A stretch of DNA of 64,000 bases from the NCBI GenBank assembly GCA_040510435.1, contig JBEVJD010000356.1:1026-65025 (forward strand), read 5' to 3'. This DNA is from Pyrinomonadaceae bacterium (GTDB taxonomy: Bacteria; Acidobacteriota; Blastocatellia; Pyrinomonadales; Pyrinomonadaceae). Each line of letters begins with the position of its first letter. The stretch's first letter is position 1. The notes under the pieces were generated by a model, which searched no databases, was not told the DNA's origin, and was given only the letters and a program-made list of their open reading frames with translations. Position numbers and translations under genes: made by a program. Positions 20,171-44,832 of this stretch are shown here, one piece after another.

Positions 20171-20248
20171 AGGGAGTCAGGAGTCAGGAGTCAGAATGAA
20201 GAAGATGCGGCACCACTTTTTATTCTGAATTCTGGCTCCTGACTCCCT
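20171..20248. repeat. Heptamer-arm hairpin (GGAGTCA family)
   Basis: agggagtcaggagtcaggagtcagaat (20171-20197) pairs with attctgaattctggctcctgactccct (20222-20248). Confidence 0.85.
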
Positions 20249-22577: not shown

Positions 22578-22730
22578 AGGGAGTCAGGAGTCAGAACTCA
22601 GGAGTCAGAAGTTAAGAGCCGGTAGTCTGGAGCTTCGGAGTCAAAGGTCGTTGAGTATCAAGTCAGTCGTAACGGACAAGACGACACCCGCTCTACATTC
22701 TGACTTCTGACTCCTGACTCCTGACTCCCT
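22578..22730. repeat. Heptamer-arm hairpin (GGAGTCA family)
   Basis: agggagtcaggagtcagaactcaggagtcagaagt (22578-22612) pairs with attctgacttctgactcctgactcctgactccct (22697-22730). Confidence 0.85.
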
Positions 22731-38188: not shown

Positions 38189-38854
38189 TCAACGGTAGAA
38201 GGGCGTGAAGACCCAGCGGTCGTGTCGTTCGATGCCGTAGTAGGTGATGATGGAGTCGCGACGGCTGCGGCTGGTCACGCCGATGAAAGGGCCGCTGCTT
38301 GAGATTGAGCTGTCCTCGCCGCCGTCGCTATCGCCGATGCTGGAGCCGATGCCGGTGACGAGGCCGGCGAGCTGTGGGAGCTGACCCGCGAGCGGCAGCA
38401 GCGACGGGTCAGTCGTCGCGGTCGGCGTCCGCCCTTCGGCGTACTCGCTGAGGTCGCGGATGAAGCGCACCAGCGCCTCATCCCGCAGCTTGATGGTGCG
38501 CCACTCGCCGCTCTCCGAGAGCGGGTCGCGCGCGGCGCTGGCGCGCAGCACCTTGACCTTCTTCGTGCGGCCGGCGGGCGCCACGCCTTCGAGCAGCTCG
38601 TCCATCGAGGTCGGCGGCTGCTTCGCGGGGTGGAGGCTGATGTAGAGGCGGATGGCGTCAGCGACCTCCTCGCCGCGGGCGATGGCTTCGAGCTCCGTCT
38701 CGCGGCGCGCCTGCTGGCGCATGCTCGGCGCGGCGGTCATCATCGCGATCATGAGCAGCGTCATCAGCGCGAGCAGCGCGATGAGCGCGTAGCCGCGCTC
38801 GCCGGGGGCCCGCCCGCCCGAGCCGCGTTCGCCTGTTGCGTGTCGTGCTTTCAT
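38189..38854 (-). CDS. Pseudopilin-like protein (GspG/GspK-like N-terminus lacking Glu+5)
   Basis: RGYALIALLALMTLLMIAMM is a prepilin-like hydrophobic N-terminus with Ala at +5. It is followed by a RRETELEAIARGEEVADAIRLY helix typical of T2SS/T4P pseudopilins. Confidence 0.65.
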   Translation of the reverse strand: MKARHATGERGSGGRAPGERGYALIALLALMTLLMIAMMTAAPSMRQQARRETELEAIARGEEVADAIRLYISLHPAKQPPTSMDELLEGVAPAGRTKKVKVLRASAARDPLSESGEWRTIKLRDEALVRFIRDLSEYAEGRTPTATTDPSLLPLAGQLPQLAGLVTGIGSSIGDSDGGEDSSISSSGPFIGVTSRSRRDSIITYYGIERHDRWVFTPFYR

Positions 38855-38879
38855 CGAGTCTGTCCGGGTGCCGCGGGGC

Positions 38880-39815
38880 TCAGGGCTCTTCGTCGCCGTC
38901 TTCGGCGGGGGGCGGCGGGGGCTGGATCGAGCCGGGCGCGCGGCCGGGCACGCCGGGCCCGCCGCGCGTGTCCACGTAGGGCATCGTGTGCTTGATGTTC
39001 AAGTCCTTATCGACGACCTCGACGCCGCGCTCGGAGATGTCCGTGACGCGGAAGCGGCCCTCGACGAGGTCGCCCTGGCGGACGCTGTAGAGCTCGCCCC
39101 TCGCGTCCTTGAGGACGGCGGTGCTGGTGCTCGGGCGCGGGCGCTTGAGGAAGCCGACGAAGGTGTAGGTCGGCGCGGGCGGCTGCATGACGTTGAGCGA
39201 CGCCTCGTTCGAGAAGAGCTGGCCGTCGGGCGTCTGCACCTTGACGGGGCGCGCGCCGGGGGTGGAGATGAGCGAGGCCGGGACGGTGGCCGTGAGCTGC
39301 TGGGCGCTCTTGTACTGCGTCGGCAACTCCTGACCGCCGACGTAGACGCGGTCGCTGGGGCCGAACTTGTCGCCGCTGAGCTGAAGCGTGAAGCCGGCCG
39401 TGCGCGCGAAGACGCTCTGCGGCATGAGGCCGGCGAGCATCTTGTCCGGCGGCGGCGTGGGCACCGGCGTGGGCACGGTGGGGATGGGGGTCGGCGGCGG
39501 CGGGGGCTTGACGTAGAAGGCGAAGATGTTGCGGCCTGCGTCGCCGACGGTGGCGGGCTCGGGGCAGCAGACGACGACGGCGAGGTCGGCGGCGGAGACT
39601 TCGGCGTCGGCCTCGGGGGCCGTGCCGGGCGCCTGCTGCTGCGCCGTCGAGGGGCGCGCGCCGCCGCGCTTGTTGTTCGTGTTGGCGGTCGCCGGGGTCG
39701 GCCTCGAAGGGCCGGAGAGCATGTTGTAGGCGAAGATGAGTGCGAGGAGCGGCAGCGCGATGGCCGCGATCAGCTTGTTGCGCTCAGCCGGTGTCTTTCC
39801 TTCGAAGAGTGCCAT
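38880..39815 (-). CDS. PilP-like protein with Pro-rich linker and an inserted IPT/TIG-like domain
   Basis: N-terminal TM and RNIFAF motif. FTLQLSGDKFGPSDRVYVGGQEL...ATVPASL is IPT-like. The C-terminal AVLKDARGELYSVRQGDLVEGRFRVTDISERGVEVVD is PilP/GspC-HR-like. Confidence 0.6.
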   Translation of the reverse strand: MALFEGKTPAERNKLIAAIALPLLALIFAYNMLSGPSRPTPATANTNNKRGGARPSTAQQQAPGTAPEADAEVSAADLAVVVCCPEPATVGDAGRNIFAFYVKPPPPPTPIPTVPTPVPTPPPDKMLAGLMPQSVFARTAGFTLQLSGDKFGPSDRVYVGGQELPTQYKSAQQLTATVPASLISTPGARPVKVQTPDGQLFSNEASLNVMQPPAPTYTFVGFLKRPRPSTSTAVLKDARGELYSVRQGDLVEGRFRVTDISERGVEVVDKDLNIKHTMPYVDTRGGPGVPGRAPGSIQPPPPPAEDGDEEP

Positions 39816-39858
39816 GACTTTTAATTCGCTCGTCGCGCGTGAGGGCCGCGGCCCGGGG

Positions 39859-40695
39859 CTACTGCGCCGCCTCGGCGGAGGCGGCCGCCCGCCGGAAGTA
39901 TGTGGCCATGTCGAGGCGCAGGCTGACGAGCGCGCCGCGCGTGGGCGCCTGCGGCTGCGTCTGGGGCACGCCGGGCACCTCGCCGTTGGTGACGACGGGG
40001 GGCGCTATTTGTTCCGCCGCGTTCGTGTCAGTGACGCCTTCGAGCTCGACCGTGTTGATGACGACGAACTGCCGGCGGTCGCCCTCGATGTCGCGGATGA
40101 AGCGGCGGAGGTTCGGGTAGTTGCCCTCGACCGTGAGCGTGACGCCGATGCCGGGGAAGATGCTCTGCACGATGCGCTGCGCGCCCTGCTCGCCAGACCC
40201 CTGGCGGCGCGCCCGCTGCGCGTTCTCCGCGCCGGGCACGACCTCCTGAAGCTGCGTGAAGTTGATGCCGCCGCTGATGCGCAGCCCGTTCTTAGTGATG
40301 AGCCGGTTCAGTTCTTCGATGACGAGCTTCGTGCCGCTCGACGCGCTGCCGAGGTTGCCGGTCTCGAAGCGTTCGAGGCTCGTCAGGATTTCCGAGACGC
40401 GCTGCTCGGTGTCCTTGCTCGTGCCGAGGTTGGTCTGCTGGCTCGCGAGCACCTGCCTCAGGCTCGCGTCCTCTGCGTCGAGCGACTGCGTGCGCGACCT
40501 CTGCGGGACGAGCAGGAAGAGGTAGGCGAGCACGGCCGCCATCAGGAGCAGCGCCGCGAAGGCGAGCGCGCCCAGCTCGGGCAGGCCGAAGGGGCCGCGG
40601 CGGCGCGAGGCGCGGAGCGTGTCGAGGCGCGCGCGCAGGGCCGCGCCTCGCGCGCCGGCCCCGCCCGGCCCCGTGACTGCGGTGTCGTTCTTCAA
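39859..40695 (-). CDS. PilO-like pilus/T2SS assembly protein
   Basis: Single TM, coiled coil, and C-terminal VTLTVEGNYPNLRRFIRDIE...FVVINTVEL, typical of PilO/GspM. TTG start 2 nt after the pilN-like stop. Confidence 0.72.
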   Translation of the reverse strand: MKNDTAVTGPGGAGARGAALRARLDTLRASRRRGPFGLPELGALAFAALLLMAAVLAYLFLLVPQRSRTQSLDAEDASLRQVLASQQTNLGTSKDTEQRVSEILTSLERFETGNLGSASSGTKLVIEELNRLITKNGLRISGGINFTQLQEVVPGAENAQRARRQGSGEQGAQRIVQSIFPGIGVTLTVEGNYPNLRRFIRDIEGDRRQFVVINTVELEGVTDTNAAEQIAPPVVTNGEVPGVPQTQPQAPTRGALVSLRLDMATYFRRAAASAEAAQ

Positions 40696-40697
40696 AG

Positions 40698-41357
40698 CTA
40701 CTCGCGCCCCCCCGCGTCCTTAGAGATAGATATTGCGGCGTCGCGCACGGAGGCGGATATGTCGCCGGCCGGCGCGCTGCGCCCCCCGCGCCGCGCGTGC
40801 TGCACGTAGGAGACGCGCAGCAGCCACTCGAAGCCCGACTCGCCGCGCCCGGACTTCTGGTTCTCGGTGACGGCAACGACGTTGAAGGTGCCGGAGCGGT
40901 TCATCGCGTCCATCATGCCGGTCACGTCGGTCGGCGTGCGTCCGACGACCGTGAGGTCGAGGTCGGTGCGCGTCTGGTCGCCGACCTGCGCGACCTCGCG
41001 GACGTTGATGCGCGAGACCTTCACGTCGCTCGGCAGGAAGCCTTCGAGGTCGGAGAAGAGCTGCGACCACGAGAAGCCTTTGCGGCTGATGAGCGCGCGC
41101 GCGGCCTCAAGCGTCTGGTACTGCTCGCGCGGGATGCTCTGCCTGACGGCGTCGGCCTGCCGTTCGTACTCCTTCTGCTGCTCGCGCATCACCACCACCT
41201 GCTTCTCGGAGAGGTCGGCCTCTGCGCGCACCTCGTTGTAGCGGGCGAGGATAAAGACGAGCGCGAGGAGCGAGGCGGCCGAGACCGCGGCGGCCACCGT
41301 CCAGGGCAGGGCGCGATTCCGAAACGGGTCGTTGGCTAAGTTGAGTCTGGAAATCAC
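40698..41357 (-). CDS. PilN-like pilus assembly protein
   Basis: LNLANDPFRNR + TM + coiled coil + ferredoxin-like C-terminus (VKVSRINV...LDLTVVG). GTG start. Confidence 0.72.
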   Translation of the reverse strand: MISRLNLANDPFRNRALPWTVAAAVSAASLLALVFILARYNEVRAEADLSEKQVVVMREQQKEYERQADAVRQSIPREQYQTLEAARALISRKGFSWSQLFSDLEGFLPSDVKVSRINVREVAQVGDQTRTDLDLTVVGRTPTDVTGMMDAMNRSGTFNVVAVTENQKSGRGESGFEWLLRVSYVQHARRGGRSAPAGDISASVRDAAISISKDAGGRE

Positions 41358-41516
41358 TTGCTCTTTCGCTTTCCGAAGAGGTGCGTGCGCGGCAGCCGGG
41401 GGACTTCACCGGACGTTGAAAGGATAACCCGCGGCGAGAACGCACGCAACCGCCCCACGCCCGCCATTACACGCCTCGACCGCGCTGCGGTTGCAGAAAA
41501 AGCAGGAGGCTTAAAG

Positions 41517-41641
41517 GCAAGTAGACAGGAGTCAGGAGTCAGGAGTCAGTAGAAAAGAGAGGCGGCGCGTCTCAACCTCCGGGCCGAGCGCGCCGCCTGG
41601 TTCTTCTACTGACTCCTGACTCCTGTCTACTGCCTACTGCC
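41517..41641. repeat. Heptamer-arm hairpin (GGAGTCA/GTAGTCA mixed) with conserved inner GC hairpin
   Basis: gcaagtagacaggagtcaggagtcaggagtcagtag (41517-41552) pairs with ctactgactcctgactcctgtctactgcctactgcc (41606-41641). Inner aggcggcgcgtc...gagcgcgccgcct (41560-41598). Confidence 0.88.
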
Positions 41642-41643
41642 TT

Positions 41644-42600
41644 TTACGGCCGCCCGGTGGCCTGGCTGACGACGCGCGAGTTGACGACGCGGCCCGCGGC
41701 GTCGAGCGTGAGTTCGATGACGGCGCCGGTGGTGTCGAGGACGCGGCGGACGGTCTGCCCCGAAGGGTTGGTCGTGTCGGCGCCCTGCTGCGTGAGCGAG
41801 CCCACGCTGCCGACCGTGCGCTGGCCGACGACCGTCCCGGCCGTGTCGAGCGTGCGTTCGACGATGTTGCCCGAGCGGTCGACGACCCGCTGGACGGTCT
41901 GGCCGAGGTTGTTGACCGTCGAGTTCAAAAGCCCGCCGGGCTGCGTGACGTTGTTGAGGGTCTGGCCGACGGTGCCGACCGTGCGATCCACGACGCCGCC
42001 CGGTTGCAGAGCCGTGTTGGCGACGCCGCCGACCGTGCCGACCGTGTTGTCCACGCTCTGGAGGAGCCGTTCGAGTATCTGCGGGTTGCGGTCGATGGTC
42101 GTCAGCGTGCGGTCGATGATGGCGGCGACGTTGTCGAGCCTGACCTTCAGGAGCACCTCGGCGCGCACGCCCTTGATGGTGAGGTCAACGTCGTCAATCC
42201 CCACGTCGGCACCCGCGGTCAGTTGCAGGAGGTTGGCGAGGCGCGCGTCCAGAGCGACGTGCGCGCGCAGGTTCTTCACCTTCAGAGTTATCTCTTCGAC
42301 CGAGAGGTTCGGCACGTCTAAGAGCACGTCCGGGTCGCCCGAGGCCGCGGACTGCCGCCGGCGCTCGCTCGCCTCCTGCTGGCGGCGTATGTCCTCCTGC
42401 GAGAGCGGGCGGACGGGCGTGACGGCGGGCGGCGAAGGGCGCGGCGTCGGCTGCTGCTGCGCGGTGCGCGTGCCGGTCGCGGTGGCGTTGATGGAGGCGT
42501 TCGGGTCGCCCTGGTTAGTGGTCGTGGTCGTCTGCGCGTAAGCGCCGACGCCGTGGAGCGCGAGGATCAGCAAGGCTCCTGCTTGAAAGAGCTTCTTCAT
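41644..42600 (-). CDS. Secreted repeat protein (hypothetical), gene C of a 3-gene operon
   Basis: Signal peptide MKKLFQAGALLILALHGVGAYAQ with GGAGG upstream. C-terminal repeats of the type VDRSGNIVERTLDTAGTVVGQR / LDTTGAVIELTLDAAGRVVNSR. Confidence 0.7.
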   Translation of the reverse strand: MKKLFQAGALLILALHGVGAYAQTTTTTNQGDPNASINATATGTRTAQQQPTPRPSPPAVTPVRPLSQEDIRRQQEASERRRQSAASGDPDVLLDVPNLSVEEITLKVKNLRAHVALDARLANLLQLTAGADVGIDDVDLTIKGVRAEVLLKVRLDNVAAIIDRTLTTIDRNPQILERLLQSVDNTVGTVGGVANTALQPGGVVDRTVGTVGQTLNNVTQPGGLLNSTVNNLGQTVQRVVDRSGNIVERTLDTAGTVVGQRTVGSVGSLTQQGADTTNPSGQTVRRVLDTTGAVIELTLDAAGRVVNSRVVSQATGRP

Positions 42601-42678
42601 CGTTCCCTCCGGAAAATGTTTGACGAAAACGTCTCGGTACGGGCGGGGGTTTTCTTGTTCGCAAAACTTTGAAGCGGG

Positions 42679-43116
42679 TTAAGGCGGGGGCCGCGTCGGC
42701 GTGCCGCGGCGCGCATCGAGCAGTCGCAGCACGGGCGCGAGGCTCGCGCGGAAGCGGACGTGCCCGCGCACGTTGCGCAAGAGCACCTCGATGTCGCTCG
42801 CGCGCAGGGTAACACCTACGTCGAGCCGCAGTCCGCGCGCGCCGTCCGTCTCGACCGCGGTCTCGGCGTGGAAGTCCTTCTCGCTGATGCGGCGCACGTC
42901 TATGTTCAGCTCGAAGTCTTCGTCGGCGGTCGCGCCTGCTTCCTGTGTCGGCAGCGGAGGCGCGGCCGCGGGCGCCTCAACAGTCTGCGTCTGCGCCAAC
43001 GCGCCCGTAGACGCTGCGGCGAGGACGAAGCACACGATAGCGGATTTAAGAAGAGACGCGGCCGCTGATTTAAGAAGACGGCCGGCCGCGGCCGAAAGAA
43101 GATTCGTGCGTTTCAA
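42679..43116 (-). CDS. Secreted hypothetical protein, gene B
   Basis: TTG start overlapping the gene A stop (TTGA), with GGAGG upstream. Signal-like AIVCFVLAAASTGALAQ. Confidence 0.6.
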   Translation of the reverse strand: MKRTNLLSAAAGRLLKSAAASLLKSAIVCFVLAAASTGALAQTQTVEAPAAAPPLPTQEAGATADEDFELNIDVRRISEKDFHAETAVETDGARGLRLDVGVTLRASDIEVLLRNVRGHVRFRASLAPVLRLLDARRGTPTRPPP

Positions 43117-43727
43117 TTTCCCCTCCCCCTGCGCGCGAGCCCGCGCCTGTGCCGCGTCGCGGCGGCGTTGTCGGCGGGGGCTTGAGCCGGCGGAGTGTTT
43201 GACTGTGCCGGCGGAGCGTCCGCGCCGGGCGGCTGCGTCGGCGGGGGCGCGGGCGGCGGTATGTCGTCGCTCGGCGGGACTTCGCCCAGCGCCTCCGCGA
43301 CGATGCGGTCGATGTCGGCGAAGACGCTCCTGATGTGGAGCGTGATGCCTATGTTGCGGTAGGTCTCGCCGGGGCGAACCTCCTGCGGCAGGTTCTCGCG
43401 CTCCGACTCCCAGGCGGTCTCGCGCCTCGGCCGCCCCGTGAACTCGACGCGCGGGTTCGGCACCTTGTCGAACCGCAGGGACTCGGCCGTCACGCGCGCC
43501 GTGATGGAAACGTCCGCGCTCGCGTCCGCCTCGCTCTCAAGGGGCGTTCGCGGTTCGCGCGGCGCGGGGCTTGTGCCCTGCCGCGGCGGCGCAGGGCGCG
43601 ACTGACCTTGCGCGCTGGTCTGACGCGGCGCGGTAATCTGCGCCGACACGTCAGACGAAAGTCCCGACGCCGTCATGAAGACGGCGGCGAGCACGAAGTT
43701 GACGAAGGCCGTGAGCCTCACTCTCAT
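43113..43727 (-). CDS. Secreted hypothetical protein with Pro-rich C-terminus, gene A
   Basis: ATG at 43727 with GAGGTGAGG upstream. Signal peptide [22 protein letters not shown]. The 179-codon upstream extension in the ORF track is rejected. Confidence 0.6.
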
Positions 43728-43857
43728 CCTCACCTCTAAACTCTGCGCGGCAGACGCGTGCCTAAACAGAGACGTGCTCAAAGGGGAACTCGGAAGGGGG
43801 TTGTTCGGCGGTGCGCGTATGATAGCAGATTCTTTTTGCGCCGCAAGACCCCTGCCT

Positions 43858-44832
43858 TCAGCGGGGCTCGCCGGGGCCGGGGCCGGCGGGGCGCAGGTCG
43901 GGCGGGGAGACGCAGTAGGCGACGACGCGGTTGCGGCCGAGGTTCTTGGCGCGGTAGAGGGCCGTGTCGGCCAGCTCGACCAGCTCGATGGGGTCGCGCG
44001 CGTCTTCGGGGTAGGCGGCGACGCCGAGGCTGATGGTGATGCGGAGTGTCTCGTTCGTCTCGTTGGGCGCGCCGCGGCGCGTGGCCGGGAAGAGGTGGCG
44101 CTCGATGGCTGTGCGGACGCGCTCGGCGGCGACGAGCCCCTGCGCGCAGTCGGCGTTGAGGAGGAAGGCCGCGAACTCCTCGCCGCCGAAGCGCGCCGCC
44201 ACGTCGCCCGCGCGCAGGGCGCCCGTGATGAGCGTGCCAACCTCTTCGAGCGTCTGGCTCCCAACGAGGTGCCCGTGCTTGTCGTTGACCAACTTGAAGT
44301 GGTCGAGGTCCATCATCAGGACGCAGAAGGGTCGCACCTCGGTCTCGGCGCGCGCGGCCTCGCGCCGCAGTTCGGAGAAGAAGGACTTGCTGGTGAGCAG
44401 TCCCGTCAGCTCGTCGTGCGCGAGCAGGCGGTGAATCTGGCGCTGGTACTCGCGGTCTATGTCGTCGAGGAGGTCGAAGCGCAGGAGCTGTTCGCCGACC
44501 GTGAGCTTGTCGCCGTCCTGGAGGTAGGCGTCCGAGACGGGCGCGCCGTTGAGGAGCGTGCCGTTGGTCGAGTTGAGGTCGGTGATGCGATAGCGCGCGT
44601 CGCCCGTGGCTGCGTCGCGCTCGACCGTGATGCGCGCGTGCATGCGCGAGGCGCGCGCGTCGTTGACGCGCACGTCGGCTTCGAGCGCGCGCCCCAGCGT
44701 CACCTCGTCGCGTTCGAGCGGGATGGGCGCGGCCAGCAGTTCGCCGCGCAGGAAGACGAGCGCAGGGTGGCGCTCGCGCGGCGCGGAGAGCCGCGGCATC
44801 TGAACGGTCGTGTCGAAGGGTTCGCTTCCCAT
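43858..44832 (-). CDS. FHA-domain diguanylate cyclase (FHA + GGDEF)
   Basis: FHA: [25 protein letters not shown]...[14 protein letters not shown]: [17 protein letters not shown]...[12 protein letters not shown]. Confidence 0.9.

Follow-up and report, generated by a model that had tools for sequence, protein, structure and literature searches.

Envelope polymers such as curli (CsgA/CsgB) and Fap (FapB/FapC) are encoded by operons that combine small Sec-exported proteins, a repeat subunit and a shorter paralogue of this subunit. Hairpin repeats are known from the RHS/YD-repeat proteins (PF05593), which have a large shell, an RHS core, a cleavage motif and a toxin tip, and the PilMNOPQ and GspLMC families form the inner-membrane platform of pilus-like and type II secretion system (T2SS) machines. 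Here we analyze three adjacent genes, A, B and C, and compare them with these systems. The genes lie in a stretch of 64,000 nucleotides (the window) from a Pyrinomonadaceae bacterium of the Acidobacteriota (assembly GCA_040510435.1, contig JBEVJD010000356.1, positions 1,026 to 65,025), between a gene for an FHA-GGDEF protein and a pilN-like operon. The Pyrinomonadaceae are among the commonest bacteria of dry and agricultural soils and almost none of them has been cultured; A-B-C is among the conserved sets of genes for exported proteins in this family. Our analysis indicates that A-B-C is very probably autonomous and composed as a self-contained three-gene cassette, and the best explanation overall, to which we assign a probability of about 0.5, is such a cassette with a self-associating role in the cell envelope.

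Results

The four open reading frames that an earlier note on this DNA had read here are real and all lie on the minus strand: the FHA-GGDEF gene (43858-44832), A (43113-43727, 204 aa), B (42679-43116, 145 aa, TTG start) and C (41644-42600, 318 aa). Protein A consists of a signal peptide, a disordered spacer, a beta-rich core and a tail that is rich in Pro and basic at its end; protein B has a long signal peptide and a beta domain of ~70 aa; protein C begins with a signal peptide and a T/Q/P-rich spacer, followed by a charged helix, an N-domain, Gly-rich repeats and a YD/RHS-like C-terminus. The Pro-rich end of A and the terminal repeats of C had both been noticed before and are indeed present. 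Dozens of species conserve all three at the protein level, thus they are not chance reading frames.

Autonomy of the cassette

We investigated the co-occurrence of the three genes in an even set of 201 Acidobacteriota genomes, in which an absence means that the gene was not found in the genomes searched; most of the genomes compared are metagenome-assembled genomes (MAGs). Strong matches to the A and C profiles fell in the same 4 of the 201 genomes and in none of the other 197. In three genomes of the same family (G168, G111 and G178; completeness 99-100%) A, B and C are all missing; G072 has all three side by side, and G139 has A with two copies of C and no B (A-C-C'). The genes are present or absent together, which is the co-conservation on which the earlier note had made its reading depend.

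The surroundings of the cassette behave differently. Within the genus of the window the order is fixed (ribA<-FHA-GGDEF->A->B->C->pilN->pilO->pilP->pseudopilin->trmL->typA), and most of 80 species-representative Pyrinomonadaceae/Blastocatellia loci retain it even at a PilN identity of ~40%. This persistent synteny also spans the housekeeping genes ribA, trmL and typA, therefore it reflects a stable chromosome segment and not a functional unit. The backbone is found intact without the trio: in G168 (locus L112) the order is ribA<-FHA-GGDEF->pilN-O-P-pseudopilin-trmL-typA, with ~290 nt and no gene between GGDEF and pilN, and G111 (L113) shows the identical FHA-GGDEF->pilN-O-P-pseudopilin run with a 164-nt gap. 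The gene order of the pil-like operon is unchanged whether A-B-C is present or absent.

The trio is found without the backbone as well. A-B-C has neither flank within 4 kb at L053, L096, L098, L102, L104, L109, L110, L026 and L027 and in the g15 genomes G072 and G099, and these flankless cassettes occupy at least three separate positions among the Pyrinomonadales on the maximum-likelihood tree of C. It is also intact on a contig beside tal-zwf-opcA, neighbour genes which suggest that this contig is cyanobacterial. A lies directly upstream of C in Thermoanaerobaculia (A-C-C'), in Longimicrobiaceae (A-C) and in G139, and B was seen in Pyrinomonadales and at one cyanobacterial locus, a second C copy holding its position elsewhere. 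There is no obligate co-occurrence of A-B-C with the pilNOP-like operon, since each was found without the other nearby. Backbone without trio and trio without backbone together imply that A-B-C is an insertion/deletion that moves as a unit. Judged by these gene orders, the FHA-GGDEF gene and the pilN-like operon are the ancestral pair, between which A-B-C was inserted or deleted. The earlier note had arranged the region as one module of a regulator, a secreted trio and a PilNOP-pseudopilin set; the order and the trio are real, the single module is not upheld, and the comparison of neighbourhoods across Acidobacteriota shows a co-conserved trio with flanks that are not consistently shared.

Families and predicted structures

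Pfam-A and NCBIfam scans of the window proteins, reported at E<=0.1, gave no match for A, B or C, and nothing was found in PHROGs or PADLOC, so that no phage or anti-phage defence family is indicated by these collections. A PDB sequence search with the C profile returned chance CRP matches only. Foldseek compared the C model with PDB and BFVD and the A model with PDB; no hit reached E<=1e-3, and the TM-scores peaked at about 0.15. No family had been recognised for the three proteins before, and both the sequence libraries and the structure searches agree with this: no member was placed in a well-known family, the C-terminal RHS/YD-like repeats of C being the sole exception.

For A we collected 554 homologues and for B 303, and in both sets nearly every named one comes from Pyrinomonadaceae or elsewhere in the Acidobacteriota. 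The conserved part of A is a beta-rich core of ~80 aa (residues 72-150) with the motif RENLP..V.PG.TYRN, which AlphaFold2 (AF2) draws as a three-stranded sheet with a helix at a predicted local distance difference test (pLDDT) of 74-91, the mean of the whole model being 60. Profiles of A against B or C gave nothing significant past the signal peptides. B and C, for which a shared segment with an R[AG]HV core had been proposed, do share it: the segment is real and corresponds to the motif repeated within C, although the link is a weak one (hhalign E 7e-5, probability 63%, 75 columns).

The AF2 model of C, calculated from a 51-sequence alignment, has a mean pLDDT of 66. It shows the signal peptide, the T/Q/P-rich spacer as disordered, the charged helix at residues 68-86, strands at 92-121 and 125-153, helices at 156-217 and then a confident beta-meander at 224-312 with pLDDT of about 87-92. 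The N-domain (residues 88-172, 42085-42339 on the minus strand) consists of two tandem pseudo-repeats of ~34 residues, predicted to form a long beta-hairpin: its two ~30-residue strands are drawn as a hairpin with pLDDT 59-71 and align to each other (hhalign E 1e-5, probability 82%). The invariant alignment columns of C concentrate in this domain, and no other part of the family is as strongly conserved. Hydrophobic and charged residues alternate only in parts of the strands (p 0.005 at residues 144-156). The Gly-rich 10/11-residue repeats in the middle of C differ in copy number between orthologues. The C-terminal beta-meander (residues 222-314, 41659-41937, minus strand) is made of two ~45-residue units of YD/RHS-like hairpins. 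The homologue P0090 matches Pfam RHS_repeat at 2.8e-7 (31.2 bits, cut-off 22), P0125 and P0372 stay below the threshold, and C of the window itself has no RHS_repeat match at E<=0.1.

Breadth of the C superfamily

A search of a 5.8-billion-protein set found more than 3,000 homologues of C with 57-85% identity, including proteins of Deinococcus, Thermoanaerobaculia and Longimicrobiaceae, and a full HMMER scan over 1.84 billion representatives gave 1,669 clusters at 50% identity (E<=1e-3). Across phyla the identity is 57-73%. Most of them have one N-domain with one C-terminal unit; some relatives are giant and have several copies of the C-terminal unit, two are fused to a 3-keto-disaccharide-hydrolase domain, and others have the N-domain only and no signal peptide. 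The N-terminal region of P0369 resembles an outer-membrane barrel on visual inspection but has no Pfam match, and P0424 is fused to a CarboxypepD_reg domain; both fusions hint at the surface or the outer membrane.

In the plasmid p1 protein P0367 of Streptomyces sp. WAC00288 (L031, 3851-4879) the N-domain is 55% identical and there is no signal peptide. The N-terminus of P0367 is acidic, its tail is basic and rich in Lys and Ala, and it has at least five 11-residue repeats; its gene is divergent from parAB. A similar signal-less N-domain occurs in Nonomuraea, which indicates that the domain is used inside monoderm cells too.

C stands alone on plasmid P1 of Deinococcus deserti, on a plasmid of D. 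taeanensis and on the chromosome of D. maricopensis, and the neighbours of C relatives in Streptomyces and Deinococcus are not A- or B-like. The D. deserti homologue, DEIDE_RS18140 (L030, 4551-4850), apparently has its RefSeq start too far downstream: its frame runs upstream through a signal-peptide-like stretch (..APVILLAHLVMGSAFAQ), and its locus tag is out of series, which points to a gene introduced by re-annotation. GGDEF and EAL genes (L030, 1-2718) lie ~2-6 kb upstream of C on this plasmid, and a faint PilZ-like gene (L026, 1403-2083) lies ~2 kb upstream of one A-B-C cassette. These neighbours may reflect a link to cyclic di-GMP (c-di-GMP), or chance, since such genes are numerous.

On the maximum-likelihood tree of C the other phyla separate into one branch each, all of them outside the Pyrinomonadales clade, with a modest total divergence. 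This topology and the modest divergence imply that the patchy spread of C is due to old transfers or losses under strong constraint; a recent transfer from Pyrinomonadaceae is unsupported, as the other phyla branch outside the clade. A 188-kb contig labelled as a Sphingomonadales MAG (L044, JAXDPD010000043.1) carries the full FHA-GGDEF/A-B-C/pilNOP block at 84-86% identity. It is nested in the genus of the window on the C tree and is most likely a mis-binned Acidobacteriota contig.

Starts, coupling and export signals

The TTG start of B (43116-43114) overlaps the TGA stop of A (43115-43113) as TTGA, exactly as had been described, and the Shine-Dalgarno sequence of B, GGGGGAGGGG, sits within the last codons of A. 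Homologues of B keep its long N-terminus (KRTNLLS...), and for many of them the annotated start is likewise not ATG; this shared extension makes the TTG a better choice than the start of the 118-aa protein annotated in the source genome (P0248). Overlap or a gap of 1-3 nt between A and B is kept at every inspected locus that has both genes. AGGGGGAGGGGAAAT (43117-43135) codes for the conserved basic end RRGRGN of A and doubles as the B Shine-Dalgarno; thus the conservation of the A tail may partly reflect the coupling signal. C has a ribosome-binding site of its own, GGAGG with a 5-nt spacer before ATG. In A a GGTGAGG directly abuts the ATG, and a GTG two codons downstream has better spacing and is at least an equally good start, therefore the exact start of A is ambiguous and its reading frame is not. 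Translational coupling of the trio is supported for A and B through the TTGA overlap, C being served by its own strong site.

Signal peptides, which had also been noted before, are predicted on all three proteins: each has a basic N-region, a hydrophobic core and a putative cleavage site between A and Q, and the alignments of C and of B show no variation at this Q. We therefore predict that A, B and C are Sec-exported. Neither Pfam nor NCBIfam shows any Pil or Gsp homology for the three proteins, and the A-Q site of their signal peptides is of the Sec type and not of the prepilin type (G followed by FTLIE).

Transcription signals

Upstream of A lies a promoter-like block (43819-43848, minus strand): TTGCGG, a 16-nt spacer ending in TGC, and TATCAT. 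The block, GTCTTGCGGCG...GAaTCTGCTATCATAC, is invariant in the aligned GGDEF-to-A intergenic regions of 13 species, and CTTGCGG-N17-TGnTAT(C/G)AT precedes A at 19 related loci, which makes it a candidate promoter of the extended -10 type. A consensus promoter scanner missed it because the -35 is weak. The ~100-nt leader of A contains no c-di-GMP riboswitch or other Rfam element, and its RNA fold is no better than that of shuffled sequences. No extracytoplasmic function (ECF) sigma-like or sigma-54-like motif is common to the A upstream regions across distant loci.

Directly after the C stop and before pilN lies a near-perfect palindrome of ~130 nt (41514-41643) with GGAGTCA/TGACTCC heptamers, for which the predicted RNA fold has -113.3 kcal/mol (z -12.9). 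It probably marks the 3' end of the A-B-C transcript as a putative boundary or terminator. The heptamer-palindrome repeat has 10 matches in the window, with about 0 expected, and 92 exact 15-mers genome-wide, with 0 for the reversed control; it looks like a dispersed family of elements of this genome similar to repetitive extragenic palindromic (REP) sequences or miniature inverted-repeat transposable elements (MITEs). Other intergenic copies are at 20173-20246 and 22580-22728.

The flanking genes

The claim that an FHA-domain diguanylate cyclase precedes the trio is well founded. Its product (P0004, 324 aa, encoded on the minus strand outside the cassette) matches Pfam FHA at 1.3e-16 and GGDEF at 1.4e-38 and the NCBIfam GGDEF profile at 8e-46. 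The translation has GGEEF and, five residues upstream, RAGD, an RxxD of the I-site-like kind. With an N-terminal FHA domain and a GGDEF domain bearing the GG(D/E)EF motif it is a predicted diguanylate cyclase.

On the other side of the cassette four genes form a pilus-like operon (38189-41357, minus strand) with weak family matches: a PilN-like gene (40698-41357, PilN 0.011), a PilO/GspM-like gene (39859-40695, T2SSM_b 2e-4), a PilP/GspC-like gene with a TIG/CoaZ repeat (38880-39815, CoaZ_rpt 7e-20, PilP 0.05) and a pseudopilin-like gene (38189-38854). In the third of them a 'choice-of-anchor Z' PGGG repeat or TIG-like domain (NF058597, 6.9e-20) precedes the weak PilP-like end, an unusual architecture for PilP, and the operon has no adjoining pilM or secretin gene.

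The behaviour of A-B-C as an autonomous insertion/deletion clarifies this neighbourhood, in which the FHA-GGDEF gene pairs with the pilNOP-like operon. One may hypothesize that a pilus-like machine is controlled through c-di-GMP/phosphothreonine, for which this conserved pair is the cleaner candidate.

Discussion

C is the sole member of the trio that is found alone and it is the most widespread, which points to C as the core component. Its strand domain is duplicated and near-invariant, is used with and without export signals and has a partner, B, that consists of this domain only; this combination points to a self-binding or surface-binding core and not to an enzyme. As a tentative mechanism, the N-domain of C with its two partly amphipathic ~30-residue beta-strands would drive self-association into an envelope-associated oligomer or polymer, in which the Gly-rich repeats of variable copy number would serve as a spacer and the YD-like C-terminal domain as the contact to a partner or a surface. 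B, with the strand-repeat domain only, would join the C assembly as its cap or nucleator and would be replaced elsewhere by the second C, and A, as a small beta-rich companion of exported C, could be a periplasmic helper or anchor. A wider conjecture, which we regard as doubtful, is that C-type proteins are subunits of an undescribed self-assembling sheet, fibre or ring, with B as cap or nucleator and A as helper, that this system is portable and patchy in soil and dryland bacteria of several phyla, and that its core domain is reused inside actinomycete cells.

Several observations weigh against the proposed cassette with a self-associating envelope role. The order of the FHA-GGDEF gene, A-B-C and the pil genes is kept across many Pyrinomonadaceae, which would fit a lineage-specific functional tie, and GGDEF and EAL genes are near C on the D. 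deserti plasmid too. The pLDDT of the strand-domain hairpin (59-71) and the model means (66 for C and 60 for A) are only moderate, the beta-amphipathic pattern is not significant over the whole strands, and the link from B to C has a probability of only 63%. Finally, the strand domain occurs in signal-less proteins, so that any mechanism must work in the cytoplasm too.

One could argue that the trio protects the cell under stress such as desiccation, acting in the periplasm or as a membrane coat, and that C covers membrane or cell-wall surfaces by means of amphipathic repeats, as late embryogenesis abundant (LEA) proteins or apolipoproteins do, instead of assembling into a defined structure. 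The Gly/Thr/Val-rich 10/11-residue repeats of C with their variable copy number would fit this explanation, and so would its cytoplasmic relatives, which have clear 11-mer repeats and weak Apolipoprotein and ApoLp-III matches. The named carriers of C are likewise suggestive: Pyrinomonadaceae, D. deserti, D. hopiensis, D. maricopensis, Longimicrobiaceae and Streptomyces are dryland or soil taxa, the three Deinococcus species being desert isolates. However, the most conserved parts of the family are folded beta domains and not low-complexity repeats, the Apolipoprotein-type Pfam matches are far under their cut-offs, and no stress-type promoter is common to the lineages. We consider this explanation unlikely.

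It could also be that the FHA-GGDEF gene, A-B-C and the PilNOP-pseudopilin set are one surface or secretion module under c-di-GMP and phosphothreonine control, and that A, B and C are substrates or parts of a pilus/T2SS-like machine. The same-strand order in most of the 80 loci in spite of a PilN identity of ~40% speaks for such a module, as do the GGDEF and EAL genes near C in D. deserti and the position of C after comEA-comEC in D. maricopensis. However, the backbone is intact without A-B-C, A-B-C occurs without the backbone at no fewer than 10 loci and in other phyla, and the synteny also covers ribA, trmL and typA. Additionally, the cassette has its own promoter-like block and terminal palindrome, and its leader is free of c-di-GMP riboswitches and other Rfam elements. 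Thus, a single module appears quite unlikely.

It is very improbable that C is a pore or channel former or an RHS-related toxin-like protein, whose hairpin inserts as an oligomeric beta-barrel with A and B as accessory or protective proteins: the two ~30-residue strands with partial hydrophobic/charged alternation and the RHS-type repeats at the C-terminus would suit it, but C lacks a polymorphic C-terminus and any domain of a toxin or an enzyme, its very high conservation is unlike that of variable RHS toxin tips, the polar face of the strands is heavily charged, Foldseek finds neither a pore-forming nor an RHS shell fold, and PADLOC and PHROGs give no defence or phage family.

The preferred reading, a self-contained cassette with a self-associating envelope role, has consequences of two kinds. 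If C does self-assemble, it would be a new building block among bacterial envelope polymers; if it does not, the family definitions are still useful for annotation. The cassette defines three unnamed protein families without a solved structure or detectable relatives. As protein families the three are unlike anything described, the short RHS/YD-type repeat being the sole known element.

Comparison with known systems

Compared with other FHA-GGDEF diguanylate cyclases, the gene of the window has both domains and intact GGEEF and RxxD motifs and is in no way unusual; its conserved partner is the pilN-like operon and not A-B-C. The PilMNOPQ/GspLMC inner-membrane platform is the same-strand neighbour of A-B-C in many Pyrinomonadaceae, but no match to its families comes from A, B or C, and the platform operon is complete and syntenic without the trio.

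The probable likeness to RHS/YD-repeat proteins is confined to the last ~90 residues of C, which are hairpin repeats of the form D..G.(I/V)(V/I)E.T.D..G. It is supported by a close homologue that passes the Pfam RHS_repeat cut-off and by the confident AF2 beta-meander. In contrast to the large shell of RHS proteins, C has only about 4-6 hairpins, with no RHS core, cleavage motif or toxin tip: of its 318 aa ~90 residues are repeats, there is no further domain, and elsewhere C shows no relation to RHS proteins.

With curli and Fap the cassette has a similar operon logic alone in common, B perhaps standing to C as the shorter paralogue to the repeat subunit. A, B and C have no sequence or fold similarity to these systems, and in the contexts inspected neither a CsgG/FapF-type channel nor a CsgE/F-type factor is encoded in or beside it. 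Gas-vesicle GvpA, BON/OsmY, TamB/AsmA and Asp23 were rejected as candidates, as no profile match supports any of them.

Finally, C and its cytoplasmic relatives resemble LEA/apolipoprotein-type proteins by their 10/11-residue repeats between domains, and the matches of the relatives to Apolipoprotein and ApoLp-III are sub-threshold (13-20 bits, with cut-offs of 36-90), C itself giving nothing at E<=0.1 with the LEA and Apolipoprotein profiles. Contrary to those proteins, the C family is defined by its conserved folded beta domains and not by the repeats.

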